From NCBI GenBank assembly GCA_965208105.1, contig OZ242318.1:3232001-3296000 (forward strand): a DNA stretch of 64,000 nucleotides. The letters are read 5' to 3'. Of this stretch, positions 2,256-48,117 are shown in pieces. Position 1 is the stretch's first letter, and each line of letters opens with the position of its first letter. This stretch comes from Candidatus Latescibacterota bacterium (GTDB lineage Bacteria > Latescibacterota > UBA2968 > UBA8231). A model generated the notes under the pieces. That model saw nothing but the letters and a program-made list of their open reading frames with translations. It was not told where the DNA came from and did no database searches. The translations under genes were made by a program, and so were the position numbers.

Positions 2256-2288
2256 CCGAATCAGGAAATAGATGATGGGACTAAACTT

Positions 2289-3254: not shown

Positions 3255-3420
3255 GAAGTGAAACTCTGGCAGGATTCAAGGGTTATGGCAGGAATTTCCA
3301 TTTTTGTTTCCTGGGAAGGCCCCTGAGGATAGTGGCTGTTCTTCCGGGGCGGTTGTGCCTGCCAGAATAAGCGAAGATTCGGTTTTGGATCAGGGTGACC
3401 GGAGACCTGATCTTGCGCTT

Positions 3421-3921: not shown

Positions 3922-4076
3922 GTTGGACAGGCTCCCGAGGTTGGCACAGGAGTGTTGCAGGGCGGTTAAGGATGTAGTTGCGTTGGTGGGGCCGGGGTGG
4001 TAATTTTTACAGAAGTTTCCAACAAAATTGTTTATTTTTCCTTCCGGGTGCAACATTGAAGTAGAGGGAAATAGGA

Positions 4077-5147: not shown

Positions 5148-5168
5148 AAAGCCTAGGACGGCGGGCAG

Positions 5169-6509: not shown

Positions 6510-6544
6510 GCACGGACTGGTTTTGGATGTTGAATTCTACCGGG

Positions 6545-6578
6545 AGGAAGAAGGGAGCGGGAATGCTCCCTTCTTCCT
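6545..6578. terminator. Perfect 14-bp stem-loop downstream of PMM (probable terminator)
   Basis: aggaagaagggagc-gggaat-gctcccttcttcct; weak U-tract. Confidence 0.6.
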
Positions 6579-6676
6579 GTACGATACTAAAATGACTTAA
6601 GATTGGCTTGCTCTTGTTTTACGGAGGGAAGAGAAAGAGTTTTTCTGTTATGGACAAGGGATCGGGTTCTTAGCAG

Positions 6677-7927: not shown

Positions 7928-7938
7928 TCGATAGGCAT

Positions 7939-9378: not shown

Positions 9379-10550
9379 GAGTTCTGGTCGCTTCGCACCT
9401 CTACCCCAGTTCCCTATCTCTGACGTCCGGTAGTTTCGTCCACAATCAGGTGCGTTTCCTCCGGGCCCATTGCAATATCAGGGTGATTTCGCCCACGCCG
9501 TGGTTTCCCCCATTGCCGGGATTTGGCCGTTGGAGCAGCTATGGCAGAATCAGGCGCCAAGAAGTCCTGGACAGGGTGGAAGTAAACCGGCCACCTTATC
9601 TGGCTCTACCGCGCCGGATGCTGTTTGCCCACAACTGGCGTTCATATTTGGCGGCTTTGCACCGGGACAATTCTGGACCTCCCGATCTCATTCACGCTCA
9701 CTGCGCTTATCCAGACGGACTGGCAGCTGTGGAGTACGGCCGCCGTCTGGGCCTGCCCGCTGTCATTACGGTGCATGGACACGACATCAAGGAGCTTCCC
9801 GGCATTAGATCGCACTGGCGCAGCCTGGTGGTTCGGGCTTTGGAGCAGGCCGCAGTTGTAATAGCGAACGGCAGAGATTTGCGTGAGCGGGTACTTGATC
9901 TGGGAATACCCTCGCACAAGGTGGAAACCATACCTAACGGGGTGGATTGTCAGGTGTTCTGCAACGATTTCGCCCGTCAGCCCGGAGCGGGGGGCTGGCG
10001 ATTGCTATACGTGGGACGCATTGATCCCCGAAAAGGGATTGGCGAACTGCTCGAAGCAATGGCGGTTTTGCGGAGCAAACGCGATGATGTGCGCCTCAAG
10101 CTCATAGGTGGCAACCCGGCTGGTGGATTGCCGGATAGGTTTCGGCGGCAGATGGAAAAACTTGGATTGCAGGGTTGTGCCGAGTTCCTCGAGGAGGTGC
10201 CCTGGGACCAGGTCCCGCAACACATGGCCGCTGCCGACGTATTCGTGCTGCCCAGCCTGTACGAGAGCTTCGGGGTGGTCCTGGTCGAAGCCATGGCTTG
10301 TGGTCTGCCTCTCGTGGCCACGCGTTGCGGTGGTCCGTCAGAAATCGTCGAAGAGGGGACCGGACGGTTGGTAGAGGTGGCGGACGTCAAAGGATTGGCA
10401 GAGGCTCTGGATGAGGTGATACGAGACCACAGGAGCTTTGATCGAATGGCCATCCGCCGTAGCGCCGAAGAAAAATACGACTACCGTCAAGTAGCTGCGC
10501 GTATCCACCAGGTTTACGAAGAAGCCCTGGCCGGTTATTCGGGAGGTTGA
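9375..10550 (+). CDS. Glycosyltransferase family 4 (TuaC-like)
   Basis: PDLIHAH, TVHGHD, IPNGVD, VLPSLYESFGVVLVEAMACGLP. Confidence 0.93.
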   Translation: MRVLVASHLYPSSLSLTSGSFVHNQVRFLRAHCNIRVISPTPWFPPLPGFGRWSSYGRIRRQEVLDRVEVNRPPYLALPRRMLFAHNWRSYLAALHRDNSGPPDLIHAHCAYPDGLAAVEYGRRLGLPAVITVHGHDIKELPGIRSHWRSLVVRALEQAAVVIANGRDLRERVLDLGIPSHKVETIPNGVDCQVFCNDFARQPGAGGWRLLYVGRIDPRKGIGELLEAMAVLRSKRDDVRLKLIGGNPAGGLPDRFRRQMEKLGLQGCAEFLEEVPWDQVPQHMAAADVFVLPSLYESFGVVLVEAMACGLPLVATRCGGPSEIVEEGTGRLVEVADVKGLAEALDEVIRDHRSFDRMAIRRSAEEKYDYRQVAARIHQVYEEALAGYSGG

Positions 10551-11689
10551 TTCTCTTTCAGCAATTCTCGGTAAAATTTCACCAATTTCCTCCCCTGGGA
10601 ATCCCAGTTGTATTTGCGGATTACGGCCGCCCGGCCCCGGTCTCCCATTTCCTGCCGCAAAGTACCGTTCTCCAGCAACTGCACCACTGCCTGCACGACC
10701 GCTTCCTGATTCAGAGGGTCAACGAGGAAACCACACTCCGCATCCTGGACAATTTCCCGCCAGAGGGGAAAATCGGAGACTACCACCGGTTTGCCCATAA
10801 TCATATACTCGAACAATTTTGTAGGCAGTGAGTAGAGGTAGTTCGGATCGGGGTGCAGTAGAACCAGCCCGATGTCGGCGTTCAGAATCTGATTGTGCAC
10901 TTCAAGATGGGAAACCGGGCCGAGGATCTCTACATTTTCATCAATGCCGTATTGGGCAATCAGTTCCCGCGCATGTTCCTTTTCGACGATTGAGCCGAAT
11001 GGTCCCACCAGGCGCAATAGAAGGTCGGGTTGGGCACCCTTGAGCCGGTGGATCAATCCAAGCATTTCGTAAAGCCCCCTGAGGGAGGTGATGCTACCGC
11101 AGTATATCAGAACAGGTCCGCGCCGGCTCTCGGGTCGAGCAGCATGGTAGAGGTGGGAATAGTTTGTGAGAGGATAGTTCAGTACGGTGAGCGTGTTTTT
11201 CCCTGGATAGTACTTTTCGTAGGCGCAATCCGCCAGAGTAAGGCCGTCGATAAAGCGCAGAGAAATGAACTCGAGCAGGGAATAAAGGCGGGCAACCAAG
11301 GGGCGGAGTGGTGCAGGCAGCCATTCTTTGTTGTGGATTGAAATTGGTACGTCTTCGTGGACGTCGTAGATTACCTTGCATTCGGCAAGCAGCTTGAGCA
11401 GGACCCCGGCGGGGAGTAGTTCGGGGTCGTGAAAGGCGTAGATTCTTGCCTTCTGGCGCAGTGCCAGGTTCAATGTGGACAGTATCCGCACCAATCTGTG
11501 GAGTCGATTCCTCGGTCTTGGTACGGATATGATGTGAATGCCTTTTGCCCCGGCCTGGCCGGGCTCGTCAAGCGCAATGACCGTCACGCGAAAGCCGGCC
11601 TGAGCCAAGGTAAGGGCCTGCTTCCTGACCACGCGTACATCGGAAATGGAATGGACCGTGCTGAGAATGCAGATCCGGTCGGACGCCAT
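10535..11689 (-). CDS. Glycosyltransferase family 4
   Basis: FHDPELL, YDVHED, SLPTKLFEYMIMGKPVVVSDFP; start placed at MASDRICIL. Confidence 0.9.
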   Translation of the reverse strand: MASDRICILSTVHSISDVRVVRKQALTLAQAGFRVTVIALDEPGQAGAKGIHIISVPRPRNRLHRLVRILSTLNLALRQKARIYAFHDPELLPAGVLLKLLAECKVIYDVHEDVPISIHNKEWLPAPLRPLVARLYSLLEFISLRFIDGLTLADCAYEKYYPGKNTLTVLNYPLTNYSHLYHAARPESRRGPVLIYCGSITSLRGLYEMLGLIHRLKGAQPDLLLRLVGPFGSIVEKEHARELIAQYGIDENVEILGPVSHLEVHNQILNADIGLVLLHPDPNYLYSLPTKLFEYMIMGKPVVVSDFPLWREIVQDAECGFLVDPLNQEAVVQAVVQLLENGTLRQEMGDRGRAAVIRKYNWDSQGRKLVKFYRELLKENQPPE

Positions 11690-11905
11690 CAGGACTCCCG
11701 GGAGTTGGCGGCGGAGTAGACCGGGTGGAGGAGTGGCATCTTGACCTTCCGAGCTTCCGGGGGATTTCCGGGGATTAATCCATTGGTCGGACATGCTCCC
11801 CCATAATCTTGACATATTTCAGGGGCTCGGTTATTGTGTAAACTTTGAAACCTGCTGTCAATAAAACACTTGAAATACAATCCTTCAGAATCGGGGAAGA
11901 TAGTT

Positions 11906-13621
11906 GTGGCAGCGTACCTGGGTCTTTTTGACGGCCACAATGCGGCCGCGTCCCTATTCTTCAACGGCCGCATCCAGAAAGCCGTTCAGGAAGAACGGCT
12001 CACGGGAATAAAGGATTTCTATGGTCCTCCTGAAAAGTCAGTACGGGAGGTCATGTCGTTGACGGGTTTACACCCGTCCGATGTAGACCGGGTTTGTGTC
12101 GCCTCTAAATACGTTTCACTTCCACGTCCGCCAAAATCTGCAAAGGCCGCATTTGACAACCGCTACCATCGCAATCTTCGCCAGCAGGCCTTGCGCACGC
12201 TTGCCTCGACAGGAACCTACAGAAATTTCAGGGCAAGGCAGCGGATGCAACAAAGAGCGGCCCTGGTAGAGGATTGGGGATTCAGCCGGGACAGGGTGGA
12301 ATTTTTCGATCATCATCAAACCCACGCCGCCAGCGCTTATTTCGGATTGAGAAAAGACGACAGCCCCTACCTGGTTTTGACCCTTGATGGGGGTGGAGAC
12401 CGCCTATCGGGATCAGTGTGGGTCGGGGCCAGCGGTGAGTTGAAAAAGATCGCGATGATTCCCCAGGAGGACAGCCTTGGCGAAATCTATGCCGTTACCA
12501 CCCACCTGCTGGGATTCATGCCTCTGGAACACGAATATAAGTTGATGGGCATGGCGCCCTATGCGTCGGAAGAGCATGCAAAGAGTGTAGCGGGAATCTT
12601 CCGCACATACCTCGACCTGGATGAGAAGAATCCCTTGCGATTCAAGAGAAAGGTCCCCGAGCCGCTCGCATGGATAGGGCCGCGCCTGCAGAGAGATCTC
12701 AAGCGCATGCGCTTTGACAGCATTTGTGCCGGCCTCCAACTGTTTACGGAAAATGCGATTGTAAGGTGGGTCCGCGCTTGTATCGATAAGACGGAAATAA
12801 GGCGGATTTTAGCTGCAGGTGGAGTGTTCATGAACGTGAAGGCCAACAAGGCTATTTCCGAATTGGACGGGGTCGAGTATTTCGAGGCCTTCCCTTCCAG
12901 CGGGGACGAGTCTTTGGTTTTCGGTACGTGCTATTTGGCGGCGCGATCCAATGGAGAAGAGGTGTTGCCGCTGGAGCACTGCTACCTGGGCAACGATCTG
13001 ACAGAGGATGAATGCAGGAAGGCCCTGAGTAACTTCAATGAGTTCGAGATAGAAGAACCTGGGGACATGGGATTGAGGATCGCGGAGATGTTGGCATCCG
13101 GAGAAATTGTTGCAAGAGCTTCGGGCCCTATGGAATTCGGCGCAAGGGCTCTCGGCAACCGTTCCATACTGGCCGACCCCATCAATCAGGACGTTGTGAG
13201 AATCATTAACAGGATGATAAAAAACAGGGATTTCTGGATGCCATTTGCTCCCGTTGTCATGCGCCGGGAGTCTTCGCAATATTTTGCAAATCCCAAGAGC
13301 CTGCCTTCGCCGTATATGATGAATACATTCAGTTCCACTGACAAAAGAGATGAATTTATGGCTGCCGTCCACAACGCAGACCTGACGGCCCGACCGCAGC
13401 TTTTGGAGCAGGGGCAGAACGGTGCATACGAAGAAATACTGCATCATTTTGGCAGGATGACCGGCCGACACGTCTTGTTGAATACCTCCTTCAATCTGCA
13501 TGGTTATCCGGTCGTGTGCAGGGCGGCCGATGCCCTCCACGTGATGCTCAACTCGGGGCTCAACAATCTTGCCCTGGGCCCTTACCTTGTTACGAAAAGA
13601 AAAAAAGAAGGAATCAAGTAG
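11906..13621 (+). CDS. Carbamoyltransferase (NodU/CmcH/TobZ family)
   Basis: GHNAAA, QEERLT, HHQTHAASA, LDGGGD, EYKLMGMAPY, AGGVFMNVKAN, EFGARALGNRSILA, NTSFNLHG. Confidence 0.95.
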   Translation: MAAYLGLFDGHNAAASLFFNGRIQKAVQEERLTGIKDFYGPPEKSVREVMSLTGLHPSDVDRVCVASKYVSLPRPPKSAKAAFDNRYHRNLRQQALRTLASTGTYRNFRARQRMQQRAALVEDWGFSRDRVEFFDHHQTHAASAYFGLRKDDSPYLVLTLDGGGDRLSGSVWVGASGELKKIAMIPQEDSLGEIYAVTTHLLGFMPLEHEYKLMGMAPYASEEHAKSVAGIFRTYLDLDEKNPLRFKRKVPEPLAWIGPRLQRDLKRMRFDSICAGLQLFTENAIVRWVRACIDKTEIRRILAAGGVFMNVKANKAISELDGVEYFEAFPSSGDESLVFGTCYLAARSNGEEVLPLEHCYLGNDLTEDECRKALSNFNEFEIEEPGDMGLRIAEMLASGEIVARASGPMEFGARALGNRSILADPINQDVVRIINRMIKNRDFWMPFAPVVMRRESSQYFANPKSLPSPYMMNTFSSTDKRDEFMAAVHNADLTARPQLLEQGQNGAYEEILHHFGRMTGRHVLLNTSFNLHGYPVVCRAADALHVMLNSGLNNLALGPYLVTKRKKEGIK

Positions 13622-13860
13622 AGAGATACCGGGTTTTCCTGTACGGCTTCTCCTGCCCTTTGCAGGTTCGCAAATTTGCCCCCTCCATACAGGCGGGCCT
13701 TCTTTCTCTGGCGTCCCGTTCGGAGAATTCGCGGGTTCTTTTCCGGCCCGGGTTTTGGGGATATCGAATCCGGTCAGGGCCTCCCTCCCAGTGATCCTCT
13801 GGCAAATCTTCAGGTACGAGACCTATGCACTATGATCCTTCAGAATGTGGGCAAGGTTGC

Positions 13861-15006
13861 TTGCTGAGCCTTTTGCTCTGGGCCTCGGTCCTGGTGATTG
13901 GCTATTCTTACCTGATTTATCCCGGGCTTCTTTGGATCATGACCCTTCGCAAGCGTCCTCCGACCTACGCCGAGTTTGTCGAGTGGCCAACGGTCTCCTT
14001 GATTCTCGCGGCCCGCAACGAAGCAGCTGTTATCAAGGAGAAAATTGAGAATTCGTTAGCTCTTGATTACCCCAGGGACAAACTGCAGGTAATCGTGGTG
14101 TCGGATTGTTCAACGGATGGCACGGACGAAATCGTCAGTGGTTTCGAGGAAAGGGGAATTGAGCTGTGCCGCATGGATGCCCAATCGGGCAAGACTACTG
14201 CCCAGAATGCGGGGGTAAGGATGGCATCCGGTGAAATTTTGGTTTTCTCAGATGCCAACAGTATGTACGCGGTCGATGCATTGCGGGAATTGCTGCGTCC
14301 ATTAAGCGACCCGGAGGTGGGTTGTGTTTGCGGAGAATTGCGCTACCTGAATCCGGAGGACCAGGGGGCTGGGAAGGGGGAGGGGATGTACTGGCGCTAT
14401 GAGCAATTTCTGAAATGCCGAGAGAGTCTGTTGTGTTCCACCTTGGGCGCCAATGGTTCGATTTACGCCCTTCGCCGCGGGTTGTTCGAAGAACTGGGAT
14501 CGGACATAATAAGTGACTTCATCATGCCGGTCCGCGTTTGGCGCCGGGGATATAAAGTAGTTTACGCACCTGGGGCCATAGCCACCGAGAAAACCGGAAC
14601 CAGTTTCCAGGACGAGTTCAGGCGGCGAAAACGCATCGTCTCGCGTAGCGCACACAGCCTGTGGACGGAGGCGGAGATTCTCAATCCATTGAGCAATGGA
14701 ATCTTTGCAGTTCAAATGATTTCTCACAAGGTTCTGCGTTGGCTGGTTCCAGTTTTTCTGATAGCAATTCTTGTCTGCAATGTTTTTTTGGCAGGCAGCA
14801 GGCCGTACAACCTTCTCCTGATTTTCCAATTGGCCTTCTATGGATTGGCTGTACTGGGAAATTTGGAACAGAGATTTCTGGGGCGGCGCATGTTGGTGTA
14901 TTTGCCAGCCTACTTCTGCGCCACGAATTTTGGCGCTCTACTTGGTCTGTGGAGTTTCCTGACCAGGCGCAAGCACACTGTGTGGCAGCCAAAGAGGCGC
15001 GGTTGA
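13861..15006 (+). CDS. Glycosyltransferase family 2 (membrane, CESA-like)
   Basis: AARNE, VVSDCSTDGT, FSDAN, GANGSIYA; flanking TM helices; start uncertain (13825 or 13861). Confidence 0.9.
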   Translation: MLSLLLWASVLVIGYSYLIYPGLLWIMTLRKRPPTYAEFVEWPTVSLILAARNEAAVIKEKIENSLALDYPRDKLQVIVVSDCSTDGTDEIVSGFEERGIELCRMDAQSGKTTAQNAGVRMASGEILVFSDANSMYAVDALRELLRPLSDPEVGCVCGELRYLNPEDQGAGKGEGMYWRYEQFLKCRESLLCSTLGANGSIYALRRGLFEELGSDIISDFIMPVRVWRRGYKVVYAPGAIATEKTGTSFQDEFRRRKRIVSRSAHSLWTEAEILNPLSNGIFAVQMISHKVLRWLVPVFLIAILVCNVFLAGSRPYNLLLIFQLAFYGLAVLGNLEQRFLGRRMLVYLPAYFCATNFGALLGLWSFLTRRKHTVWQPKRRG

Positions 15007-15009
15007 GCC

Positions 15010-16476
15010 ATGTCTAAATTTCAAAGACGGGTTTTTCTCCTCCTCAGTGACTTTCTCGCCATCAATGCAGCATCGGTATCCTTCCTGTGGATGAAATTCG
15101 CCGGAAATCAGCTCGAAAATGTCGAGCTTGGGTGGCGGCGGCTCCAACCTTCCGCAGATGGCGGCACTCCCCCCTTTTGGTTCGTCCTGAATCACTATCT
15201 CTACGACGCAATTCCCGCAATTTGCGTCTGCTGGCTGCTGTTCTTCGCGTTCAACGGCATGTATCGGGCCCAGCCTACCCTTTCTCGATTTGACGAGGTA
15301 GTATCCGTCTTCAAGGTAGTCACGGTTGGGACGCTGCTTTGGTTTATCGCTACCTTCAACCCGGAACAACCATTTCCCCTTACCCGGGCGTTAATTTTTT
15401 CTTACTGGCTTACTTTGATCGGGCTGCTCTCCGGTGGCCGCGTGGTCATTCACAGCATTCAGCGCCAGCTGCTGGTTCGGGGAATCGGTTGGCGCAACAC
15501 GGTGATCGTAGGGACGGACGAAAGGGGAGAACGGCTCTCTCACCACTTGAAGCTCTCGCCGGCACAGGGATTCAACGTCATTGGATTCGTGCGCACTCAC
15601 CGTGGTGAAGAAGTGGCTGCGGTAGGAGAGGTTCCTGTACTGGGTCGTGTATCGGACCTTGGCGAGATCATCTCCAGATTCCAGGTAGAAGTGATTCTGA
15701 TTGCTTTGAAATCTAACTCACACGAGGAGATTCTGGAGATCGTCGACGCAACGGGTGGAGAGCAGGTCTCCTTCGGCATCACTCCCGACCTGTACGATAT
15801 CGTCACCGGGCATGTGCGAACCAACCAGATTTACGGTGTGCCATTGATGGAATTGAAGCCCGAGCTCATGCCGACTTGGGAACAGGCAATAAAGCGCCTG
15901 ATCGATACTGCCGTGGCGGTATTGGTCGGGGTGGGCCTGGCGCCATTGTGGATTTTGGTTGCGCTGGCCATTAAAATTGATTCGAAAGGACCGGTGTTCT
16001 TTGGACAGGAACGGGTGGGAAAGGAGGGCAGGATATTTAAAATGTACAAATTCCGTTCCATGGTCCCTGATGCGGAAGAGTCCACTGGACCCGTATGGGT
16101 GAAAGGGGAGGATCCGCGGATAACGCGGATCGGCCGTATCCTGCGGGCCCTGCACCTGGATGAGATTCCCCAGTGCATAAACTTTTTTAAAGGCGATATG
16201 AGTTTGGTAGGACCGCGGCCTGAACGCCCCTACTTCGTCGAAAAGTTCAGAAAAAACATCCCTCTCTACATGCGGCGGTTCAATATAAAACCTGGTCTAC
16301 TTGGTTGGGCTCAATCCAAGCACGAGTTCGACATTAACTCGAGCAATGTCGAGGATATTGCCCGAGAGCGACTGGAGCACGATCTTTACTATATTGAGAA
16401 TATTTCGCTTAAGCTGGATCTCAAGATCATGCTGCGGACTGTCTGGTTCGTGATGGCCGGCAAGAGCACGCGCTAG
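15010..16476 (+). CDS. Polyprenyl-phosphate sugar phosphotransferase (priming GT, WcaJ-like)
   Basis: N-terminal TMs, Rossmann-like domain, KRLID, YKFRSM, LDEIPQ, MSLVGPRPE. Confidence 0.93.
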   Translation: MSKFQRRVFLLLSDFLAINAASVSFLWMKFAGNQLENVELGWRRLQPSADGGTPPFWFVLNHYLYDAIPAICVCWLLFFAFNGMYRAQPTLSRFDEVVSVFKVVTVGTLLWFIATFNPEQPFPLTRALIFSYWLTLIGLLSGGRVVIHSIQRQLLVRGIGWRNTVIVGTDERGERLSHHLKLSPAQGFNVIGFVRTHRGEEVAAVGEVPVLGRVSDLGEIISRFQVEVILIALKSNSHEEILEIVDATGGEQVSFGITPDLYDIVTGHVRTNQIYGVPLMELKPELMPTWEQAIKRLIDTAVAVLVGVGLAPLWILVALAIKIDSKGPVFFGQERVGKEGRIFKMYKFRSMVPDAEESTGPVWVKGEDPRITRIGRILRALHLDEIPQCINFFKGDMSLVGPRPERPYFVEKFRKNIPLYMRRFNIKPGLLGWAQSKHEFDINSSNVEDIARERLEHDLYYIENISLKLDLKIMLRTVWFVMAGKSTR

Positions 16477-17401: not shown

Positions 17402-19081
17402 ATGAGGCATTTCAGCCTGGTGGTATTGTACATGACAATGGCGGGTTGTGCCGTGTTTTCGGGCAGGGAAATAGCACCTGTCCGGGATATGACACTCCTT
17501 CCTCCACCGGTGTTGATGGATGGGATAGGCAACAGCCGATTTCCAGTTACCACCCGTTCAAGGGAAGCCCAGGCATATTTCAACCAGGGAGTGTCCCTGG
17601 TACATGGGTACTGGTACTTCGAAGCGTGGCGTGCCTTCAGGGAGGCGGCGCGGTTGGACAGTTCCTGCGCCATGGCCTACTGGGGGATCTACCAGTCGAG
17701 AACGGGGAACAATAAAAACAGAAAGGAAAAAAGTTCGGCGTTGAAGAGAGCCAAAGCACTGGCCTCAAACGCCGGAGAGCGCGAGCGGTACTACATAGGT
17801 GCAATAGCGCTTCTCGACTCATTGGGGGGCCGGGAGGGCCGCCTGGCCTTCATAGATAAAATGGGAACATTGATTGAAAGATATCCGGAGGATGTGGAGG
17901 CCAAACTATTTCTGGTGCGCTTCTTGATGAAAAACCGCAAACTGGACGCGGACTCGGGCGGCGAGGCACCCAGCCGGAAGGAGATCCTGCGCAACTTGCT
18001 GGTTTCCCATCCCGACCATCCGGCCGTCCATCACTACTGGATACACACAGTCGAGTCCAAGAATCCACAGGCCGGGCTGGAGAGTGCGGAAAAATTGCCT
18101 GAGCTATGCCCCAATGCCGGGCACTTGATGCACATGCCTGGTCATATTTACTACCGCATGGGAAACTACGACAAAGCGCGCCGTTCCTTCGTTGCTTCAT
18201 TCAAGGTCGACTCCACATATATGGCCCAACAGAATATCCCGCCAGCGAGAACCTGGAATTACCTTCACAACCTCAACTATCTGGTCGCAAACTGCGCCGA
18301 AAATGGCCGCTACAGGGAGGGATTGCAGTGGGCCCGGGTTTTGCAACAGGTTCCGTTGAATCTCCAAAGGCCCATAACCTTCTTCCAGGGCCGATTGCCC
18401 CTGGTCAGGCTGCAGATTCGATATGGATTTTGGAAATCGGCCTTTGAGAGTCTCTCCGAATTAGTTGAGAACGACACTCTGGCTACAACTTTTGCCAGCG
18501 ATTACTGCTTGGGTCTTCGGGCTTATGTGAGCGGAATGGCGGCGGTGGAAAAAGGGCGGCTGGACGAGGCAATCAGTAGAAGCGAGAAGCTCGAGGAGTT
18601 GAACAGGGAGATCGCGGCGCGGAAGAAGGCCGCCAGGGGCAAGTTCTATAGTAAAAGGAGGAAGAATTTTTTGGCTGCCATTTCTCTCGATCTGCAGGGG
18701 AATATCCACAGTATCGCGGGAGAGCACGAGCAGGGTTTCGAGGTCCTGGAAGAGGCGATAGAGAAGAAGAAGACATTGGGATACTCAGAGCCTCCGTTGT
18801 ATTCTCGTCCAGTTTTGGAAAGTCTGGGAAGTGCTCATCTGCGAGCCGGGGACTTTGAAAAGGCCCGGGCGGCGTATGCGCGAGTGATGCAGGAAAGACC
18901 CGGAAGTGGACACGCTCTCCTGGGCATTGCCCGATCGCATGCACTTGGTGGTCAGGAAGTCGAAGCAGGCGCCGCATACAAGGACTTTCTGGAGAGTTGG
19001 GCCAATGCCGACGATTATTTGCCTCAGGTGCATGAGGCGCGGGAATGGTTGAGAACGCATGGAGCAGACAGCGCGCCGTGA
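17402..19081 (+). CDS. TPR-repeat putative lipoprotein with His-rich motif
   Basis: Lipobox-like MAGC; AQAYFNQG, CAMAYWG, HPAVHHYWIH, GHLMHMPGHIY; helical TPR-like repeats. Confidence 0.8.
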   Translation: MRHFSLVVLYMTMAGCAVFSGREIAPVRDMTLLPPPVLMDGIGNSRFPVTTRSREAQAYFNQGVSLVHGYWYFEAWRAFREAARLDSSCAMAYWGIYQSRTGNNKNRKEKSSALKRAKALASNAGERERYYIGAIALLDSLGGREGRLAFIDKMGTLIERYPEDVEAKLFLVRFLMKNRKLDADSGGEAPSRKEILRNLLVSHPDHPAVHHYWIHTVESKNPQAGLESAEKLPELCPNAGHLMHMPGHIYYRMGNYDKARRSFVASFKVDSTYMAQQNIPPARTWNYLHNLNYLVANCAENGRYREGLQWARVLQQVPLNLQRPITFFQGRLPLVRLQIRYGFWKSAFESLSELVENDTLATTFASDYCLGLRAYVSGMAAVEKGRLDEAISRSEKLEELNREIAARKKAARGKFYSKRRKNFLAAISLDLQGNIHSIAGEHEQGFEVLEEAIEKKKTLGYSEPPLYSRPVLESLGSAHLRAGDFEKARAAYARVMQERPGSGHALLGIARSHALGGQEVEAGAAYKDFLESWANADDYLPQVHEAREWLRTHGADSAP

Positions 19082-19196: not shown

Positions 19197-19234
19197 GAAA
19201 GGTCCCGGCAGAACTGCTACTGCCGGGACCTTTC
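19197..19234 (-). terminator. Intrinsic terminator for the GDGDGC-repeat gene
   Basis: 15-bp stem gaaaggtcccggcag / ctgccgggacctttc, 8-nt loop, followed by CTTTT on the minus strand. Confidence 0.75.
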
Positions 19235-19281: not shown

Positions 19282-19845
19282 CTAATTGCCGCAGCCGTCA
19301 CCGCAACCGCCGCAGCCGCAACCGTCGCCATCACCGCAACCGTCGCCATCACCGCAACCGTCGCCATCACCGCAACCGTCGCCATCACCGCAACCGTCGC
19401 CATCACCGCAACCGTCGCCGCAGCCGCAACCGTCGCCATCGCCGCAACCGTCGCCATCGCCGCAACCGTCGCCATCGCCGCAGCCATCACCGTCGCCGCA
19501 ACCGTCGCAGCCGTCGCCGCAGCCGCAACCGTCACCGTCGCCGCAACCGTCGCCATCGCCGCAACCGTCGCCATCGCCGCAACCGTCGCCATCGCCGCAA
19601 CCGTCGCCATCGCCGCAGCCGTCGCCATCGCCATCGCCACAGCCGTCACCGCCGCCACAACCAGCACCCTCGCCATCACCGTCACCGCAGCCGCCACCGC
19701 CCTCTTCCGCTGTCGCGGACAGGATGAGTGTGGAGTTGGCAGCAGTTGAGGTCTGTTCCGTCACGTCAAATCCATCAGCCCATGCGGCGCTGCTGATGAA
19801 AACCATCAACACCAACGCACAGAAAGAGTTAAGTAATTTTGCCAT
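19282..19845 (-). CDS. Secreted Gly/Asp/Cys tandem-repeat protein, (GDGDGC)n
   Basis: GAGGAG RBS before ATG 19845; signal peptide MAKLLNSFCALVLMVFISSAAWA; about 26 Cys in the repeat region; TAG stop then terminator. Confidence 0.8.
   Translation of the reverse strand: MAKLLNSFCALVLMVFISSAAWADGFDVTEQTSTAANSTLILSATAEEGGGGCGDGDGEGAGCGGGDGCGDGDGDGCGDGDGCGDGDGCGDGDGCGDGDGCGDGDGCGCGDGCDGCGDGDGCGDGDGCGDGDGCGDGDGCGCGDGCGDGDGCGDGDGCGDGDGCGDGDGCGDGDGCGCGGCGDGCGN
19288..19695. repeat. 18-bp coding tandem repeat (ccgcaaccgtcgccatcR), about 20 copies with variants
   Basis: Directly visible; variants ccgcag/ccgcaa and tca/tcg, with periodic 6-12 bp interruptions. Confidence 0.95.
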
Positions 19846-19962
19846 AAGTATTCTCCTCAGGGGTAAGGGTGGTGGGATTTCGATTCTCTGTTGAGGTACG
19901 ATGGACTCTATGGCTTGCAATAAAGCAGAGGCAAGACCAATCTTCCGTGAAATATTCACATT

Positions 19963-20739
19963 TCAGCCAATTCCCCTTGGATCCTGGCGCAGGGTCTCGA
20001 GGTTGTCTTGCAGAATCCGGGTTCCATACCCCACGATATTCCCCACATTAAGAAATCGGTAGCCCCAGCGGATCTTCTCCTGGATTTCGCCTACATCCAT
20101 CAGGGTAGTTCCGGCGACAATACCGGTACCCTCAAGCTTCCTGGGTACATCTTCCATTATTTCCTGGACTTCCCTGGAGCTGGTTTCGGTAATTTTGCCG
20201 ACAGAAGCCGACAAGTCCAGGGGTCCAACGAGGAGCACGTCTATGCCTGGGATCTTTTTGGTTTCGTCGATGTTTTCGTACGCTTCCCGGCTCTCGACCT
20301 GAAGGACGAGGACGGTCTCTTCATTGGCGGTTTTGATGACGTGATCCCAGTCTTCTCCGGCAACGCGGACCCAACCGGGGGACAGACCGCGTTCTCCCTC
20401 AGGGGGATATTTGGCATAGCGCACGGCACGGGCTGCTTCTTCCGGGGTGTTCACTTGAGGCACCATTACAGCTACGGCACCGACATCGTAGGCTTTCTTG
20501 ATGAGAGCAGGGTCGTTCCAGGCCACCCGGATCATGGGTGCCACTCCCTTGGTCCGGGCGAGGACGGGGATGGCATCCAGGGCCTCGGTTCCGAAAGGTG
20601 CGTGTTCCGTATCGATCCACAGGAAGTCCGGCCGGGTGGAGAGAACGGTTCCGGCGAGGATCGGGGTGGGGGCGGGAAGGGAACTTCCCAGGACTATTTC
20701 ACCCTTTTTCAATTTTCGCTTTAGAGGATTTGGATACAT
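19963..20739 (-). CDS. HpcH/HpaI aldolase family protein
   Basis: DFLWIDTEH, PMIRV, VMVPQV, KYPPEGERG, QVES, VGPLDLS; AAGGAG RBS. Confidence 0.92.
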   Translation of the reverse strand: MYPNPLKRKLKKGEIVLGSSLPAPTPILAGTVLSTRPDFLWIDTEHAPFGTEALDAIPVLARTKGVAPMIRVAWNDPALIKKAYDVGAVAVMVPQVNTPEEAARAVRYAKYPPEGERGLSPGWVRVAGEDWDHVIKTANEETVLVLQVESREAYENIDETKKIPGIDVLLVGPLDLSASVGKITETSSREVQEIMEDVPRKLEGTGIVAGTTLMDVGEIQEKIRWGYRFLNVGNIVGYGTRILQDNLETLRQDPRGIG

Positions 20740-23194: not shown

Positions 23195-26092
23195 ATGGAC
23201 GTGCGCGACGACAAGAAGAGTTCCCCTAGCCGATTGGGTAAAGCCCAAAAGCGGTTGCTGCTGCTGGTCCTTGGGCTGGGTGTATTCATGCTGGCGGACA
23301 CGCTCTACCTGCTGGCCAATCGCTTGGCCGAGGTCCTGGGAATAAATTACTTTGCCATTACGGAGGTTTCTCTCCCCAGGTTTTATCAGGGGATGGTTTT
23401 GTCCCACACCGGGGTCGGCCTGGCCCTGGCTGCGCTCGCCCTTGGATTTGTGGTCTGGCACTTGCCCAGGGTGTGGCGGGCAAACCGCCGCCGGGCAATC
23501 ACCACGGGAGCCGCAACGGTTACCCTGGGTGGGGTCCTGACCGTTACCGGGCTTTTTATCCTCAGCGAAGCCAACAGCCGCGAGAACGCCTGGGCTTTCT
23601 GGATTCACGTCGCCGCCGCGGGGTTGTTGCCGGCTTTCTATCTGGCGCACAGGCGAATCTCCCTGTGGAAGCCCTCGGCCCGCAGCTACCGGGTTGTGCC
23701 CGGGGCGATAGTCGGACTTTTCGTGCTGGCGGTGGTACTCCACGGCCTCAGCTATGACCGGGACCCCTACACTCCCGCGGCCGAGAAAGCTTTTGCGGCA
23801 GGCTCCTACCTGGGACCAGGTTCCAAGCTGCAGAAAGTGGAAGATTATGCGGAGTCCGCGTTTGTTCCGGCCAATTTCGTACCGACCCAAAGCCCCTTTT
23901 TTCCAGCGGCCACGACCACCACGACCGGGAATTACCTTCCTTCGCGCATTATAACCCGTGGTGATCTATCCAATCCTGAGAAGCTGAAAAAGGAGATAGG
24001 TCGATACGGATTTGTAGCAGAGGAGCCGATTGGAGCCGAGACCTGTATCCGTTGCCATGCCGATATCGTCGAGCAGTGGTCCAGGTCGGCGCACCGCTTT
24101 GCCTCATTCAACAATCCCTTCTACGAAGCAACCATCAACGATTTGCGCGAGACCTCGGTTCACGGCAATGCTGAGGTCCGTGGCCATATCGACCACTTTG
24201 CCGGCCTGAAAGGCAAGGAAGGCCCGATCAAGTCCAAGTGGTGTTCGGGATGCCATGATCCGGCCCTGATGCTGGCCGGCAAGATGACCCAGCAGATCGA
24301 CCGTGAATCGCCCCAGGCCCAGGCAGGCCTCACCTGCCTGTCCTGCCATGCCATAGACCTCATCCACAACCAGACCGGAAACGGCAACTACAATATCGCC
24401 GACGAACAGGAGGACCCTTACCTCTTTGCAGAATCCGCCTCGGGCATGGGACGCATGATCCACGACGCGTCCTTGAAGGCGCGGCCTGCAGTTCACAAGC
24501 GCCAGATGCTCAAGGGATTCTTTCACACCTCGGAATTCTGCGCTACCTGTCACAAGGTCAGCCTGGATTCGCGCCTGAACGGATATCGCTGGCTCCGCGG
24601 CCAGGACGAGTACGACAACTGGCACGACAGCGGGGTGGCGCGCAACGCCGCCCGCACATTCTACCTGCCCGAGAAAGCCCGGGTCTGCCAGGACTGCCAC
24701 ATGCCACCCGAAAGGGCCTATCTGGGCGACGTTGCGGCAAAGGATGGATACGTGCGCTCGCACCGCTTTCTGGCGGTCAATACGGCACTGCCGTTCCTGC
24801 GCGGAGACGTGGAAACCATCGGGCGCATCGAGGCATTCTTGCAGGATGAAAAGCTCGGTGTCGATATTTTCGCTCTGCGCCGCGGCGAAGGAGAGATAAT
24901 CTACTCCCTGGACAGAACGCAGCCGTCACTGCGTCCCGGTGAGTCCTTTCAGTTCGATGTAGTGGTGCGCAACAAAGGTGTGGGGCACACTTTTCCAGGG
25001 GGAACCAACGACTCCAACGAGGGCTGGCTGGAGGTCTCGGTGCTGGATGGAGATGGAATCCTTCTGGCGCAAAGCGGCCAGGTACGCGATGACGGCCACG
25101 TCGACCCCGCAGCCCATTTCTACAAGGCTCTGCTGGTTGACCACCGCGGCGAGGGCATTCACAAGCGCAACGCCCAGGATATCGTCACCAGTGTCTATAC
25201 CCGCGTCATTGGTCCGGGTACGGCAGACGTTGCCCATTACAGCTTTCGCATACCGCGGGATTACGATGGTGCCCAGCTGACTCTCAAAGCCCGCCTGCTG
25301 TGGCGCAAGTTCGACCGCAAGTACACCGAATTTGCCTACCGCAACAACCCGGAGGGATTCACAGCCTTCGACAGGGTACCGGATCTTCCCGTCAGTCAAA
25401 TCGCCGCGGACGAGTTGATATTATCCGTAGGTGGAAGTGGAGGTGCTCTGGGCTCGCCGCTGGAGGAGGAATGGGTACGGTTCAATGACTACGGCATCGG
25501 CTTGCTCCTGCAGGAAGATACACAGGGGGCGGCCAGGGCTTTCGAGCAGGTGGTCGAATGGGCTCCGGAGCGCCTTGACGGATACCGCAATCTGGCGCGC
25601 GTGGCTTTGCGGGACGGCAACCTGGAGGCCGCATATGAATTCTTGCAGCGCTGCGAAGAAAGGGTGGAAGGAGATCCCCAGACCGCCTGGGTCTGGGGGA
25701 GGGTGCTGCAGGAGGATGGGCGTTACGAGGCGGCGGCGGCCGCCTATCGCCGCGTCCTTCACGATTTTCCCGACGACCGGGCGTCGTGGCGCAACCTGGG
25801 GCGCGTCCTCTACCTGGACAGCCGCTTCGAGGAGGCCCTGGCGGCCCTGAACCAGACCTTGCGAATCGATCCGGAGGACAGGATTGCCCATTACCACCGA
25901 ATGCTCTCCCTGCGGGCCCTGGGGCGCGAAGAAGAGGCGGGGATTGCGGCAGAGGCCTACAAGTATTACCAGATCGACGAATCTGCACAGGAGTTGACCC
26001 GGGCCTACCGATTGAAGCATCCTCACGACAACCGCGAAGCGCAGAGGATACACGTACACCCCTTGACCAAAACTACAAAGGCTGGTGTATGA
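23195..26092 (+). CDS. Membrane-anchored pentaheme cytochrome c with C-terminal TPR domain
   Basis: About 5 N-terminal TM helices; CIRCH, CSGCH, CLSCH, CATCH, CQDCH; GHTFPGG motif; TPR repeats. Confidence 0.88.
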   Translation: MDVRDDKKSSPSRLGKAQKRLLLLVLGLGVFMLADTLYLLANRLAEVLGINYFAITEVSLPRFYQGMVLSHTGVGLALAALALGFVVWHLPRVWRANRRRAITTGAATVTLGGVLTVTGLFILSEANSRENAWAFWIHVAAAGLLPAFYLAHRRISLWKPSARSYRVVPGAIVGLFVLAVVLHGLSYDRDPYTPAAEKAFAAGSYLGPGSKLQKVEDYAESAFVPANFVPTQSPFFPAATTTTTGNYLPSRIITRGDLSNPEKLKKEIGRYGFVAEEPIGAETCIRCHADIVEQWSRSAHRFASFNNPFYEATINDLRETSVHGNAEVRGHIDHFAGLKGKEGPIKSKWCSGCHDPALMLAGKMTQQIDRESPQAQAGLTCLSCHAIDLIHNQTGNGNYNIADEQEDPYLFAESASGMGRMIHDASLKARPAVHKRQMLKGFFHTSEFCATCHKVSLDSRLNGYRWLRGQDEYDNWHDSGVARNAARTFYLPEKARVCQDCHMPPERAYLGDVAAKDGYVRSHRFLAVNTALPFLRGDVETIGRIEAFLQDEKLGVDIFALRRGEGEIIYSLDRTQPSLRPGESFQFDVVVRNKGVGHTFPGGTNDSNEGWLEVSVLDGDGILLAQSGQVRDDGHVDPAAHFYKALLVDHRGEGIHKRNAQDIVTSVYTRVIGPGTADVAHYSFRIPRDYDGAQLTLKARLLWRKFDRKYTEFAYRNNPEGFTAFDRVPDLPVSQIAADELILSVGGSGGALGSPLEEEWVRFNDYGIGLLLQEDTQGAARAFEQVVEWAPERLDGYRNLARVALRDGNLEAAYEFLQRCEERVEGDPQTAWVWGRVLQEDGRYEAAAAAYRRVLHDFPDDRASWRNLGRVLYLDSRFEEALAALNQTLRIDPEDRIAHYHRMLSLRALGREEEAGIAAEAYKYYQIDESAQELTRAYRLKHPHDNREAQRIHVHPLTKTTKAGV

Positions 26093-45430: not shown

Positions 45431-45535
45431 TCCTTGATGTGAGTCCCGGACGAAATGTCCTGTAGAGGCGGGGTGCCTCGCCGTCGGGGGCCATTCAATC
45501 AACCGGGTAGAGATCTTATCGGGTCAGTTTTCGAG

Positions 45536-48004: not shown

Positions 48005-48005
48005 A

Positions 48006-48061
48006 AGCCCGTTGAAAAAGTCCATCCGGCCTCGCCTGCAGAGCAACTTTATCAACGGGCT
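48006..48061. repeat. 16-bp inverted repeat between convergent genes (mini-MITE/IS-end remnant or bidirectional terminator)
   Basis: agcccgttgaaaaagt ... actttatcaacgggct (1 mismatch), 24-nt spacer. Confidence 0.6.
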
Positions 48062-48117
48062 GTCAGGGCAGCCAGGCCGTGGAATCAGGCCCCCGGCAAA
48101 GGCGCCCCAGATTATAG

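Follow-up and report, generated by a model that had tools for sequence, protein, structure and literature searches.

A Gly/Asp/Cys repeat protein of a sponge-associated Latescibacterota bacterium, derived from a Cys-tailed YceI-family protein

What kind of protein is built almost entirely from glycine, aspartate and cysteine, where does it come from, and what might it do for the bacterium that encodes it? These questions are raised by a gene in the window, i.e., the whole stretch of 64,000 nucleotides of a Candidatus Latescibacterota contig (OZ242318.1) that was analyzed. The repeat region of its product contains 72 Gly, 38 Asp, 26 Cys, 2 Glu, 1 Ala and 1 Asn in 140 residues, and the mature protein (164 residues, of which roughly 45% are Gly, 24% Asp and 16% Cys) is free of Lys and Arg, with a net charge near −44. 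The unit GDGDGC occurs 14 times, in runs of 5, 4 and 5 with GC, GDGC and DGC units between the runs; at the DNA level, Tandem Repeats Finder reported a period of 18 with 18.2 copies and 87% matches for 19315..19632 (score 454). A first, sequence-only reading had described an exported, stand-alone, polyanionic and Cys-dense protein with a strong ribosome-binding site, a 23-residue signal peptide ending in AWA, a short linker, an array made almost only of G, D and C with about 26 Cys and no basic residues, runs of GDGDGC split by GCGDGC-type units, and a terminator of its own, and this description holds in every part (Table 1). The signal peptide was called by rule, on the basis of a Lys-containing n-region, a hydrophobic core with a mean Kyte-Doolittle value of 2.1 (residues 4-20) and the A-W-A motif before Asp24. 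In an AF2 model (mean pLDDT 40.6), only the signal-peptide helix was confident, and the protein is thus predicted to lack a fold (pLDDT around 41). The 3′ UTR has a folding energy of −54.7 kcal/mol (z = −5.6), which was reached by 0 of 200 shuffled sequences.

Table 1. Coordinates of the features at the Gly/Asp/Cys locus, as positions in the window.
Feature	Position	Strand	Remarks
Coding sequence of the Gly/Asp/Cys repeat protein, 187 codons (187 aa)	19282..19845	-	ATG at 19845; TAG stop (19284..19282) included
Ribosome-binding site GAGGAG, 7 nt 5′ of the ATG	19853..19858	-	AAGGAG in the sister orthologue
Sec signal peptide, residues 1-23, predicted cleavage after A-W-A	19777..19845	-	Composition rules and orthologue
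Linker, residues 24-47 (24 aa), remnant of the first YceI strands, poorly conserved	19705..19776	-	
Repeat region (residues 48-187) with three (GDGDGC)n super-repeats, C-terminal end GCGCGGCGDGCGN	19285..19704	-	
Conserved 5′ region, 118 nt, from the HpcH-type aldolase gene to the ATG	19846..19963	-	
Palindrome, 13 nt (5-3-5), inside the 5′ region	19947..19959		
Intrinsic terminator hairpin, probably shared by the two convergent genes on either side	19197..19234	-	15-bp stem, then T-run
TPR lipoprotein, convergent neighbor with invariant His cluster	17402..19081	+	Pfam TPR matches only

Over the array of the window, five of the six reading frames are open, so that the length of the ORF by itself says no more than chance would, and the evidence for the frame has to come from comparison with the sister species. 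The only other species of the genus (genome G001) has a syntenic orthologue (L002:1369-2040, minus strand) that matched residues 1-182 with an E-value of 2.1e-20, and in both species the gene lies between a TPR gene and an HpcH aldolase gene. The orthologue retains the ribosome-binding site, the ATG, the signal peptide, the AWA|D cleavage site, the frame, the terminator and the C-terminal GCGCGGCG(D)GCGN. Its repeat unit is GGDDGC or GDDGC instead of GDGDGC, and Cys and Asp content has been maintained despite this change of unit; conservation of Cys in homologs, on which the sequence-only reading had made its proposal depend, was thus found in one orthologue. The same reading had named a plus-strand PQPSPS frame as the competing product. 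That frame begins within the array, at a TTG, runs on for 60 residues beyond it here and ends just past the array in the sister species, and it failed as an alternative since it has no conserved flanks. The conserved elements at the two ends (ribosome-binding site, ATG and signal peptide; C-terminus and terminator) are joined only by the minus-strand Gly/Asp/Cys frame, which is also the frame that carries the YceI homology described below. The comparison shows that this sponge-associated Latescibacterota bacterium has a genuine gene here, with a product predicted to be exported by the Sec pathway.

Conservation is uneven along the gene. The signal peptide is identical to that of the orthologue at 16 of 24 residues (83% nucleotide identity), and the 118-nt 5′ region shows 73% identity as compared to 53% in the convergent intergenic region, while the two flanking genes share 0.50 (189 sites) and 0.60 (126 sites) of their fourfold-degenerate positions with the sister species. 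The terminator stem is preserved through a compensatory change from G-C to C-G. The linker has only 35% amino acid and 55% nucleotide identity, which suggests that it evolves almost neutrally. The DNA units are nearly identical within the array of each genome, and the two arrays are young and were homogenized independently. Among 23 listed runs, no RNA data set was seen to hold the stretch, and the runs that hold it are mostly labeled as sponge or marine metagenomes. In contigs of three further runs, indels in the gene or at its 3′ edge (+12, −21, −3, +12, 1+2, 2+1 and +1−1) all have net lengths that are multiples of three. Slippage by whole units preserves the frame by itself, which lowers the weight of the retained frame and of the in-frame indels as evidence. 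Short-read contigs break within the array and skip 90, 297, 163 or 196 nt, which may be assembly collapse, and the copy-number variants seen in such contigs were left out of the evidence.

The 5′ region gave little on regulation: a simple scan found no sigma-70-like site, a sigma-54-like spacing was dropped because the orthologue lacks it, and the palindrome is no regulon marker, with 2 occurrences found genome-wide against 2.2 expected.

Searches for relatives returned almost exclusively low-complexity sequences. Beyond the window genome, the family was found only in G001 among 61 related genomes, with the weaker matches elsewhere being other low-complexity frames. A word search with residues 1-50 against 5.8 billion cluster representatives gave 3 candidates, none of which scored. 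The whole protein gave 84 matches at E ≤ 0.01, of which the 23 inspected were unrelated GYGDG-type low-complexity regions, and a HMMER profile gave 51 matches at E ≤ 1e-3 among 1.84 billion representatives, the 18 inspected being unrelated periodic-Cys or low-complexity proteins. The ESM Atlas yielded no usable match, NCBIfam no relative, Rfam no family near its gathering score, and two DNA-pattern scans of JGI metagenomes no matches. A scan of GTDB contigs produced 329 pattern stretches and 0 confirmed cases, but it also missed the known orthologue, and its tblastn confirmation is probably blind to this type of sequence. A Pfam match to TrAA12 (residues 37-101, 36.2 bits with a cut-off of 30.9) was rejected as compositional, as the orthologue does not have it. 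In the window genome, the only other ORF passing a Cys/Gly density filter was an off-frame, Arg-rich artifact, and text searches of the literature found neither GDGDGC nor Latescibacterota together with cysteine-rich. The family appears to be confined to one genus and two genomes. The sequence-only reading had not recognized the architecture, and no described family matched it indeed; what did not stand is the implied orphan status, as the protein is a domain-loss derivative of a YceI-family protein with a Cys-Gly tail.

The descent from YceI-type proteins emerged from the N-terminus. When the N-termini of the two Gly/Asp/Cys proteins were aligned with hhalign to those of 22 YceI proteins with Cys-rich tails, the probability was 97.7% and P was 1.4e-12 over a co-linear stretch of 60 columns (7-67 on 7-67). 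An earlier profile had been smaller, and none of 200 shuffles scored as high with it as the real sequence. In BLASTP, the orthologue matched one of these proteins, P0149, with an E-value of 3e-7. An HMM built from tail-less YceI cores matched only one ORF among those of 19 loci, which was the orthologue (E 3.8e-8), and the longer linker of the orthologue aligned to YceI residues 25-68 (P 1e-6). The linker of the window protein alone gave no signal (P 0.33), so that for this copy the link runs via the orthologue and via its signal peptide, which aligns with those of the Cys-tailed YceI proteins. Beyond the signal peptide, some 45 residues of the domain remain in the sister species and only about 20 in this genome. 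In Pfam searches the YceI domain itself, PF04264, a lipocalin-like barrel of about 150 residues, was absent from both the window protein and the orthologue, and the syntenic proteins of genomes G014, G024 and G008 matched it with E-values of 1e-21 to 1e-24. N-terminal homology and occupation of the same slot beside a TPR lipoprotein gene together point to deletion of the barrel and expansion of the tail. The Gly/Asp/Cys protein thus descends from a periplasmic YceI-family protein with a hypervariable Cys-Gly tail; in this genus the barrel was deleted and the tail expanded by amplification of 15/18-nt units. The tail grew from 7-78 to 140-150 residues, about threefold, and is now rich in Asp.

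The Cys-tailed YceI proteins form a subfamily (P0137-P0160; genomes G008, G013, G014, G021 and G024) that appears to be undescribed; a literature text search combining YceI, cysteine-rich and C-terminal gave nothing relevant. Of 26 matches, four were dropped as fragments or for lack of a Met start. Among the 22 full-length members, 17 have at least 4 Cys in a tail of 7-78 residues. The tails are rows of Gly-flanked Cys (…CGGGCGGGCGG) with repeats that differ from member to member, i.e., CGG, KCGGG, SCGG, CNPCGGAA and CDGG, and that of P0160 ends in a sequence (…CGGCGGCGN) resembling the C-terminal motif of the window protein. Their charge varies, with Lys in some members, Asp in others, and little or no Asp in ancestral tails. 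Since tail charge is not conserved, the Asp enrichment of the Gly/Asp/Cys protein may be incidental. All ancestral tails have just one feature in common, Cys residues separated by 2-5 small ones, and Cys is probably what selection has acted on.

The sequence-only reading had suggested a search for conserved neighbors, and one was found within the bacterial family. The TPR lipoprotein gene is convergent with and adjacent to the tail gene in the window genome, G001, G014 and G024, and lies one gene apart in G008 and G021, while all other flanking genes of G014, G024, G008 and G021 differ. Within this family the YceI-Cys-tail gene has the lipoprotein gene as its conserved partner; genomes G032 and G073 of the same family have the TPR gene and no YceI-tail match. 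Outside the family, genomes G093, G094, G124 and G058 encode YceI proteins with Cys-rich tails and no TPR orthologue was found there, and TPR homologs in other phyla had no YceI neighbor within 4 kb. The lipobox Cys is present in 10 of 10 orthologues of the lipoprotein, which also has 8 invariant His, several of them spaced i/i+4 on helices. Its AF2 model (pLDDT 87.5) is a generic TPR superhelix; a fold search gave only such superhelices (TM ≤ 0.51), including Tom71 with an Hsp70 tail and LbcA, and a sequence search of the PDB gave designed consensus TPRs. Complex prediction with the mature Gly/Asp/Cys protein (score 0.00, mark 0.32) speaks neither for nor against binding. The Gly/Asp/Cys gene adjoins a 16-kb polysaccharide synthesis cluster encoding Wzx, Wzy, glycosyltransferases, a priming transferase and UppP. 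Its immediate neighbors include no metal-responsive regulator, transporter or chaperone.

We tentatively propose that the protein is a putative periplasmic ligand array of thiolates and carboxylates, a function that we consider somewhat less than evenly probable. Sec export in a diderm would deliver it to the periplasm. The genome revealed no DsbA, DsbB or VKOR, which should leave the 26 thiols reduced or bound to metal: PF01323, PF13462, PF07884 and PF02600 are absent from the single-contig genome, and as controls they match in 8, 9, 3 and 6 of 14 genomes. With completeness estimated at 93.9%, however, this absence of Dsb genes is not proof. Because Cys spacing is the only feature kept in the ancestral tails, thiol chemistry appears to matter, rather than charge or a regular fold. 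About 40 carboxylates beside the thiols on a flexible Gly backbone would give an array of high capacity and low specificity, which could buffer or sequester thiophilic cations such as Zn, Cu(I), Cd, Ni, As(III) and Hg, with Ca and Mg held on the carboxylates. The protein would then be a gene-encoded, exported analog of metallothionein or phytochelatin. Sponges are known to accumulate metals. In one study, sponge-associated Latescibacterota are discussed as carrying mercury and arsenic resistance genes, and they are described as aerobic or facultative heterotrophs (PMC12993501), a way of life in which thiols could oxidize without any enzyme. A fuller scenario, which we put forward as doubtful, is that an exported poly-thiolate was born by take-over of a tail, with the barrel shed and the tail amplified, and now may serve metal or metalloid sequestration, or nucleation of metal-sulfur or Ca minerals, in the periplasm of a sponge symbiont, aiding metal handling by the holobiont.

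Several other explanations have to be weighed against this ligand array. The protein may be a functionless relic, a signal peptide and tail left after deletion of the barrel, with repeat DNA that changes by slippage. The YceI barrel, the sole part with a known activity, is lost; the linker is nearly neutral at 55% nucleotide identity and the window copy has lost more of the YceI remnant than the sister copy; the arrays are recent and homogenized, five of six frames are stop-free with slippage preserving the frame without selection, and the gene is confined to one genus. A relic is nevertheless unlikely, since signal-peptide codons (83%) and 5′ region (73%) exceed the 50-60% of fourfold sites, the ribosome-binding site, ATG, AWA|D, C-terminal motif and terminator are all conserved, and the tail was enlarged about threefold in both species instead of being lost, with Cys and Asp kept through the change of unit sequence. 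We consider it equally unlikely that the protein is a structural polymer of the envelope or exopolysaccharide matrix, or a mineral-nucleating template, held together by intermolecular disulfides, Ca2+-Asp bridges or both. Asp-Gly-rich acidic proteins and the "calcium wires" of thrombospondin type 3 are Ca binders to which the protein bears some likeness, and its charge of about −44 with Gly spacers, the adjoining polysaccharide cluster and a habitat of Ca-rich seawater or sponge tissue would suit such a polymer. Yet the YceI-tail genes of other genera do not lie by polysaccharide clusters, except for a CapD-like gene in G008 and G021, a disulfide-forming system was not found in the genome, TSP_3 and RTX gave no Pfam match at E ≤ 0.1, and there is no sign of transport past the periplasm. 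A Ca-loop reading of the D-G-D-G motifs, as had been suggested from the sequence, fared poorly as well: the orthologue (GGDDGC) has not kept the strict G-x-G-x-G-x alternation, which argues against Ca loops or a silk-like regular structure and makes a regular sheet or loop lattice unlikely.

A little less probable again is that the protein is a sacrificial or carrier polymer of thiols, which in the periplasm would trap or ferry oxidants, electrophiles (quinones, for instance) or sulfane sulfur, the last in the form of persulfides on Cys flanked by Gly. The ancestral rows of Gly-flanked Cys resemble the C-terminal GGCGG sulfur-binding arm of SoxY (PMC6067878). By annotation, the ancestral YceI domain is a polyisoprenoid/quinone-binding fold, and 26 kb away there is a gene for a thiol:disulfide protein of the DsbH/DsbD_N type. 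The Cys of the present protein, though, are flanked by Asp and Gly rather than by Gly on both sides, SoxY (PF13501) was not found in the genome, nor sulfur-oxidation genes in the window, and nothing links the protein to a recycling reductase. That the Cys-Gly tail is a tag bound by, or covalently linked to, the TPR lipoprotein or another envelope component, and that the tail-only protein acts as decoy, competitor or filler, is improbable. TPR superhelices commonly clamp C-terminal peptides, LbcA is the lipoprotein partner of CtpA, and the fold matches to Tom71 with its Hsp70 tail and to LbcA agree with docking, as does the fact that lipoprotein and tail genes are the only conserved pair at the locus within the family. 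The pairing breaks down, however, with the four genomes of other families that have Cys-tailed YceI and lack a detectable TPR orthologue, the TPR homologs of other phyla that have no YceI gene nearby, and G032 and G073 with the TPR gene only; moreover, the tail is not common to other proteins of the window genome or, with one tail as query, of G008 and G021. Very improbable is the suggestion, also made from the sequence, that the protein is a precursor modified by an enzyme encoded elsewhere, such as a radical SAM enzyme that would install Cys-to-Asp thioether cross-links. Cys and Asp do alternate at short range, as an analogy with QhpC and ranthipeptides would have it, and the window contains one radical SAM gene (48118..49164), but this nearest one lies 29 kb off and has DUF3641 rather than a SPASM peptide-maturase architecture, no maturase, protease or exporter is encoded within about 15 kb, the N-terminus is a standard Sec signal peptide instead of a leader, and the ancestors were ordinary periplasmic proteins. 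There is just as little reason to expect that the array is a non-coding tandem repeat or that the PQPSPS frame is translated. Five open frames, and absence from large protein collections, from which gene callers may have skipped the gene, would allow it; against this, PQPSPS has no conserved flank at either end, Rfam shows no family at threshold, and the joined conserved elements and YceI homology all belong to the Gly/Asp/Cys frame.

Should the protein be produced and bind metals, bacteria would have an exported counterpart of metallothionein or phytochelatin that is built of repeats. The poly-thiolate reading, if true, would add a new class of bacterial extracytoplasmic metal buffer and a clean example of a disordered tail becoming a whole protein; a relic would be no more than a curiosity. 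Whatever its function, the route is unusual, with a folded domain deleted and a low-complexity tail amplified and apparently kept under selection. The locus also brings to light YceI proteins whose Cys-rich tails are hypervariable, a subfamily in which the role of the tails can be approached through the members that retain the barrel.

Comparison with known systems places the protein apart from each of them. In C-terminal sorting tags such as MYXO-CTERM and PEP-CTERM, which many proteins of a genome share, the signature precedes a transmembrane helix and a basic cluster; here the repeat is followed by neither a hydrophobic stretch nor a basic residue, and only one gene per genome is present. 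Precursors of the ranthipeptide and QhpC type have a radical SAM/SPASM maturase gene beside them and a leader peptide, whereas the Gly/Asp/Cys protein has a Sec signal peptide and no radical SAM gene within about 15 kb on either side. It resembles SoxY, a periplasmic protein that bears a Gly-flanked Cys on a flexible arm at its C-terminus (PMC6067878), and the ancestral YceI tails look like concatenated SoxY arms, but it has no SoxY domain, dozens of Asp-flanked Cys instead of one, and GCGN as its C-terminus.

Thrombospondin type 3 repeats, the GGxGxD nonapeptides of RTX proteins and the (Asp-Gly)n proteins of mollusc shells are likewise extracytoplasmic and rich in Asp and Gly, TSP3 having Cys as well, and they function through bound cations, not through a hydrophobic core. 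RTX (HemolysinCabind) and TSP3 gave no Pfam match at E ≤ 0.1, the register changes from GDGDGC to GGDDGC between the two species, and neither GGxGxD nor DxDxDGxxDxxD is conserved. Metallothioneins and phytochelatins, the latter being (gamma-Glu-Cys)n-Gly, are Cys-dense metal-thiolate binders; they resemble the Gly/Asp/Cys protein in high Cys density, the lack of an aromatic core and the combination of thiol and carboxylate ligands. Metallothioneins have 25-30% Cys in CxC and CxxC clusters, whereas Cys makes up 16% here, in C-x5-C spacing (mostly 6), and no metallothionein match was obtained in Pfam (E ≤ 0.1) or NCBIfam (E ≤ 1). The copper storage protein Csp1 is exported too, but it is a folded four-helix bundle, in contrast to the 164-residue Sec-exported protein with its predicted unfolded state. 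With the Cys-tailed YceI proteins, finally, the Gly/Asp/Cys protein shares a homologous signal peptide and, in the sister copy, the first 45 or so mature residues, along with a Gly-spaced, Cys-rich C-terminal tail and the same gene slot by the TPR lipoprotein. It differs from them by lacking their eight-stranded ligand-binding barrel and by a tail that is about three times longer and Asp-rich, with a Cys spacing of 5-6 where theirs is mostly 3-4.

The Gly/Asp/Cys repeat gene has the anatomy described in the sequence-only reading, which was correct in all points checked (frame, signal peptide, array and terminator). Residues 1-23 of the window protein, assigned by rule, form what is by its sequence a textbook Sec signal peptide, with a core of mean hydropathy 2.1. 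Residues 48-187 contain G 72, D 38, C 26, E 2, A 1 and N 1 and nothing else. The runs of 4-5 GDGDGC with spacer units claimed earlier were found as three runs of 5, 4 and 5 GDGDGC units (14 in all), with GC, GDGC and DGC units in between and GCGCGGCGDGCGN as the C-terminal end. The claimed absence of basic residues holds for the mature protein, whose net charge is close to -44. The DNA of the array is a tandem repeat with an 18-nt period (18.2 copies, 87% matches, score 454), made mainly of two 18-mers one synonymous base apart. The 3' UTR folds at -54.7 kcal/mol (z = -5.6; equally stable shuffles 0/200), and an Rfam search of the region gave no family at threshold.

Features of the repeat-gene locus and of other genes discussed (window positions unless another locus is named)
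Feature	Position	Strand	Description
Polysaccharide synthesis cluster	67..16476		16 kb
TPR lipoprotein gene	17402..19081	+	559 aa; Pfam match to TPR only
Terminator	19234..19197	-	15-bp GC-rich hairpin and T-run, 3' of repeat gene
Repeat-protein CDS	ATG 19845, stop TAG 19284..19282	-	187 codons
Ribosome-binding site	7-nt spacing to ATG 19845	-	GAGGAG
Sec signal peptide	residues 1-23		Lys n-region, hydrophobic core, A-W-A before Asp24
Linker	residues 24-47		Thr/Ser/Ala/Glu
5-3-5 palindrome	19947..19959		perfect; end of aldolase gene
Multihaem/TPR protein gene	23195..26092	+	965 aa; MtrC/MtrF-like domain, paired CXXCH, C-terminal TPR repeats
DsbH/DUF255 and radical SAM protein genes	45455..49164		849-aa thioredoxin-like protein with DsbD_N; adjoining radical SAM protein with DUF3641
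IS630-like transposase ORF (sister genome)	L002:3061-3510	-	just upstream of aldolase gene; not in window

ORF length is worthless as coding evidence here, since the array is open in five of six frames; sequence comparison was decisive for both gene and frame. Among 61 related genomes, a counterpart was found only in G001, the sister species and sole other species of the genus, where the match spans residues 1-182 without stops (E 2.1e-20); other weak matches were rejected as unrelated low-complexity frames. The G001 gene occupies the same position: it lies downstream of the HpcH-type aldolase orthologue and converges with the orthologue of the TPR lipoprotein gene. Its ribosome-binding site and ATG are conserved, as are 16 of 24 signal-peptide residues, the AWA|D site and a C-terminus of GCGCGGCG-GCGN, while its array units differ (16 x GGDDGC, 7 x GDDGC). 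The loss of Cys in homologues that the earlier reading had named as counter-evidence was not seen, since this sole orthologue retains Cys in its changed units. Judged by fourfold-degenerate identity in the TPR gene (50%, 189 sites) and the aldolase gene (60%, 126 sites), the two genomes are well diverged. Nucleotide identity is 83% in the signal-peptide codons, 73% in the 118 nt upstream of the repeat gene, 55% in the linker and 53% in the convergent intergenic region, and the terminator stem is preserved by a compensatory G-C to C-G exchange.

The plus-strand PQPSPS translation, also named as counter-evidence, found no support: it starts with TTG inside the array and has a conserved flank in neither species. 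Comparison of contigs from four runs showed that short-read assemblies stop inside the array. Indels inside the gene or at its 3' edge were net multiples of three (+12, -21, -3, +12, 1+2, 2+1, +1-1), which tells little, since slippage by units of 15 or 18 nt leaves the frame intact anyway. On this comparative evidence the repeat gene is genuine and very narrowly distributed, occurring in two genomes of one genus and in sponge metagenome contigs; it is highly improbable that we are reading a wrong frame or non-coding DNA. The palindrome at the end of the aldolase gene is kept in the sister species, and its class has no genome-wide enrichment (2 matches versus 2.2 expected). In the sister genome the IS630-like transposase ORF interrupts what may be a uppP-aldolase-repeat gene operon; in the window, UppP lies two genes past the repeat gene.

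Strong orthologues of the convergent TPR lipoprotein gene occur in eight more genomes of the family (G001, G008, G013, G014, G021, G024, G032 and G073), and the lipobox Cys is present in 10/10 orthologues. The model of the lipoprotein is confident (pLDDT 87.5) and otherwise a generic TPR superhelix. Eight His residues are invariant, several spaced i/i+4, and this cluster may form a putative metal site; the motifs include H-x3-H-H-x3-H and H-x2-H-M-P-G-H, and a Cys is nearly invariant. Neither Pfam nor NCBIfam holds a specific model for the family, which has homologues of 24-33% identity in MAGs of Armatimonadota and Verrucomicrobiales. Convergent to the TPR gene in G014 and G024 lies a gene for a secreted protein that has a YceI domain (PF04264, E 1e-22 to 1e-24) and ends in a Cys-Gly tail, e.g., …GGGCGCCGCGGCGGCGGGKCGGG… or …GDGCGAGGCGGCGAGGCG…, and in G008 and G021 one CapD-like gene lies between the TPR and YceI-tail genes. 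All other flanking genes differ among these genera, and therefore the TPR and YceI-tail pair is the conserved unit, in which the Gly/Asp/Cys gene by its position fills the YceI slot in the window's genus.

With the G008 protein as query, a word search gave 26 YceI proteins at E <= 1e-20, of which 22 were analysed after leaving out four fragments. Their tails, counted from the end of the conserved R-L-T-D motif, range from 7 to 78 aa and have at least 4 Cys in 17/22. Repeat flavours are very diverse (CGG, CGGG, KCGGG, SCGG, CDGG, CNPCGGAA), DPCxPC being a further type, and P0160, a YceI protein of this set, ends in …CGGCGGCGN, like the window protein. Charge varies, with Lys in some tails and Asp in others, leaving Gly-spaced Cys as the only constant. 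In the genomes checked, the Cys-Gly tail is restricted to one gene per genome. The subfamily spans several Latescibacterota families and also turns up among metagenome proteins; source names go no further than 'YceI family protein' or 'polyisoprenoid-binding protein YceI'. It appears to be undescribed; a literature search, outside subscription journals and supplements, gave nothing relevant on YceI with a cysteine-rich C-terminus.

For the window protein and its orthologue, the N-terminal sequences aligned with those of the 22 YceI proteins over 60 co-linear columns in one register (7-67 on 7-67; hhalign 97.7%, P 1.4e-12). The mature part of the orthologue alone gave P 1e-6 with hhalign, BLASTP of the orthologue against P0149 gave E 3e-7, and a tail-less YceI-core HMM matched its ORF (E 3.8e-8) as the sole match among the ORFs of 19 loci. 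An earlier, smaller profile had given P 1.4e-4, with 0/200 shuffles reaching the real score. The window protein's own match (P 1.3e-5) is confined to the signal peptide, its 24-residue linker alone carrying no YceI signal (P 0.33), and the link of this copy to YceI is drawn from the orthologue, signal peptide, tail and synteny. No further member of the Cys-tail subfamily was found in G000, the window's genome, or in G001; G000 has one distant tail-less YceI (27% identity), and G001 has none at E <= 1e-25. The sequence comparisons explain the origin of the gene as a YceI protein of which the signal peptide and an oversized Cys tail are left, and so give a line of descent to an architecture that the earlier reading did not recognise as a described family. 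In the simplest history, an internal deletion would have taken out the YceI barrel and joined the signal peptide and first strands to the tail, which would then have grown about threefold by amplification and turned Asp-rich, with a later loss of a further ~25 remnant residues in the window's lineage.

AlphaFold2 predicted no structure for the window protein (mean pLDDT 40.6), the signal-peptide helix alone being confident. Since the Gly-x alternation of G-D-G-D-G-C is changed in the sister species to G-G-D-D-G-C or G-D-D-G-C (Cys spacing 5 or 6), neither a silk-like regular sheet nor a beta-helix is likely, nor a fixed Ca loop of the D-G-D-G kind mentioned earlier; composition is the property that the two sequences conserve. 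Gly-spaced Cys as the only constant of the ancestral tails points to thiol chemistry as the relevant property. No DsbA, Thioredoxin_4-type DsbA, DsbB or VKOR was found in the single-contig genome (estimated 93.9% complete), the same searches being positive in 8, 9, 6 and 3 of 14 control genomes, respectively, and therefore enzymatic oxidation of periplasmic Cys is not expected. The DsbH/DUF255-DsbD_N protein may be relevant to the periplasmic thiol redox state. Runs containing the stretch are mostly labelled sponge or marine metagenomes, and passages of PMC12993501 describe sponge Latescibacterota as aerobic or facultative heterotrophs with mercury and arsenic resistance genes. The earlier interpretation is borne out in part. 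We tentatively propose, at somewhat less than even odds, that the protein would sit disordered in the periplasm as a thiolate/carboxylate ligand array and buffer or sequester thiophilic metal ions; everything in this proposal beyond 'exported and unfolded' is inferred.

Several other roles compete with metal buffering. An envelope or matrix polymer bridged by disulfides or Ca is unlikely, its only support being the adjacent polysaccharide cluster, and the gene is just as unlikely to be a non-functional relic. That cluster encodes glycosyltransferases, a polysaccharide deacetylase with DUF3473, an epimerase, a phosphomannomutase, Wzx- and Wzy-type proteins, a carbamoyltransferase and a priming sugar transferase, and is followed by an RraA-like gene. 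Slightly less probable still is a thiol polymer with a sacrificial or carrier role, for which the GGCGG arm of SoxY offers an analogy (passages of PMC6067878), although the genome lacks SoxY. A docking or attachment element for the TPR lipoprotein is a distinctly weaker candidate: the link to TPR is undercut by four other-family genomes with DPCxPC or NPC-type Cys-tailed YceI in which no TPR orthologue was found, by TPR homologues of other phyla without a YceI neighbour, and by two family genomes with the TPR gene and no YceI-tail match. A RiPP-type precursor is scarcely credible. Elsewhere in the window, the gene next after that of the multihaem/TPR protein encodes an FG-GAP/ASPIC protein.

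Among the Pfam and NCBIfam models searched, the window protein matched none for metallothionein, RTX, TSP3, SoxY or YceI. The single match, to Pfam TrAA12, was rejected as compositional and is not shared by the orthologue, so that the earlier statement of no match to a described family stands among the models tested; by sequence, the protein lies outside every described family tested. Literature searches, outside subscription journals and supplements, gave nothing on 'GDGDGC' and nothing joining Latescibacterota with 'cysteine-rich'. Three small secreted metagenome proteins (P0095, P0102 and P0121) have a strict 6-residue Cys period of x-x-D-x-C-type hexads and are unrelated, which suggests that exported repeat proteins with periodic Cys form a wider class of non-homologous members. 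Both the architecture and the evolutionary route of the repeat gene are unusual. Its product would resemble metallothioneins and phytochelatins in its likely mode of action but fails their sequence and spacing criteria; it belongs to the YceI family by descent but without that family's defining domain.
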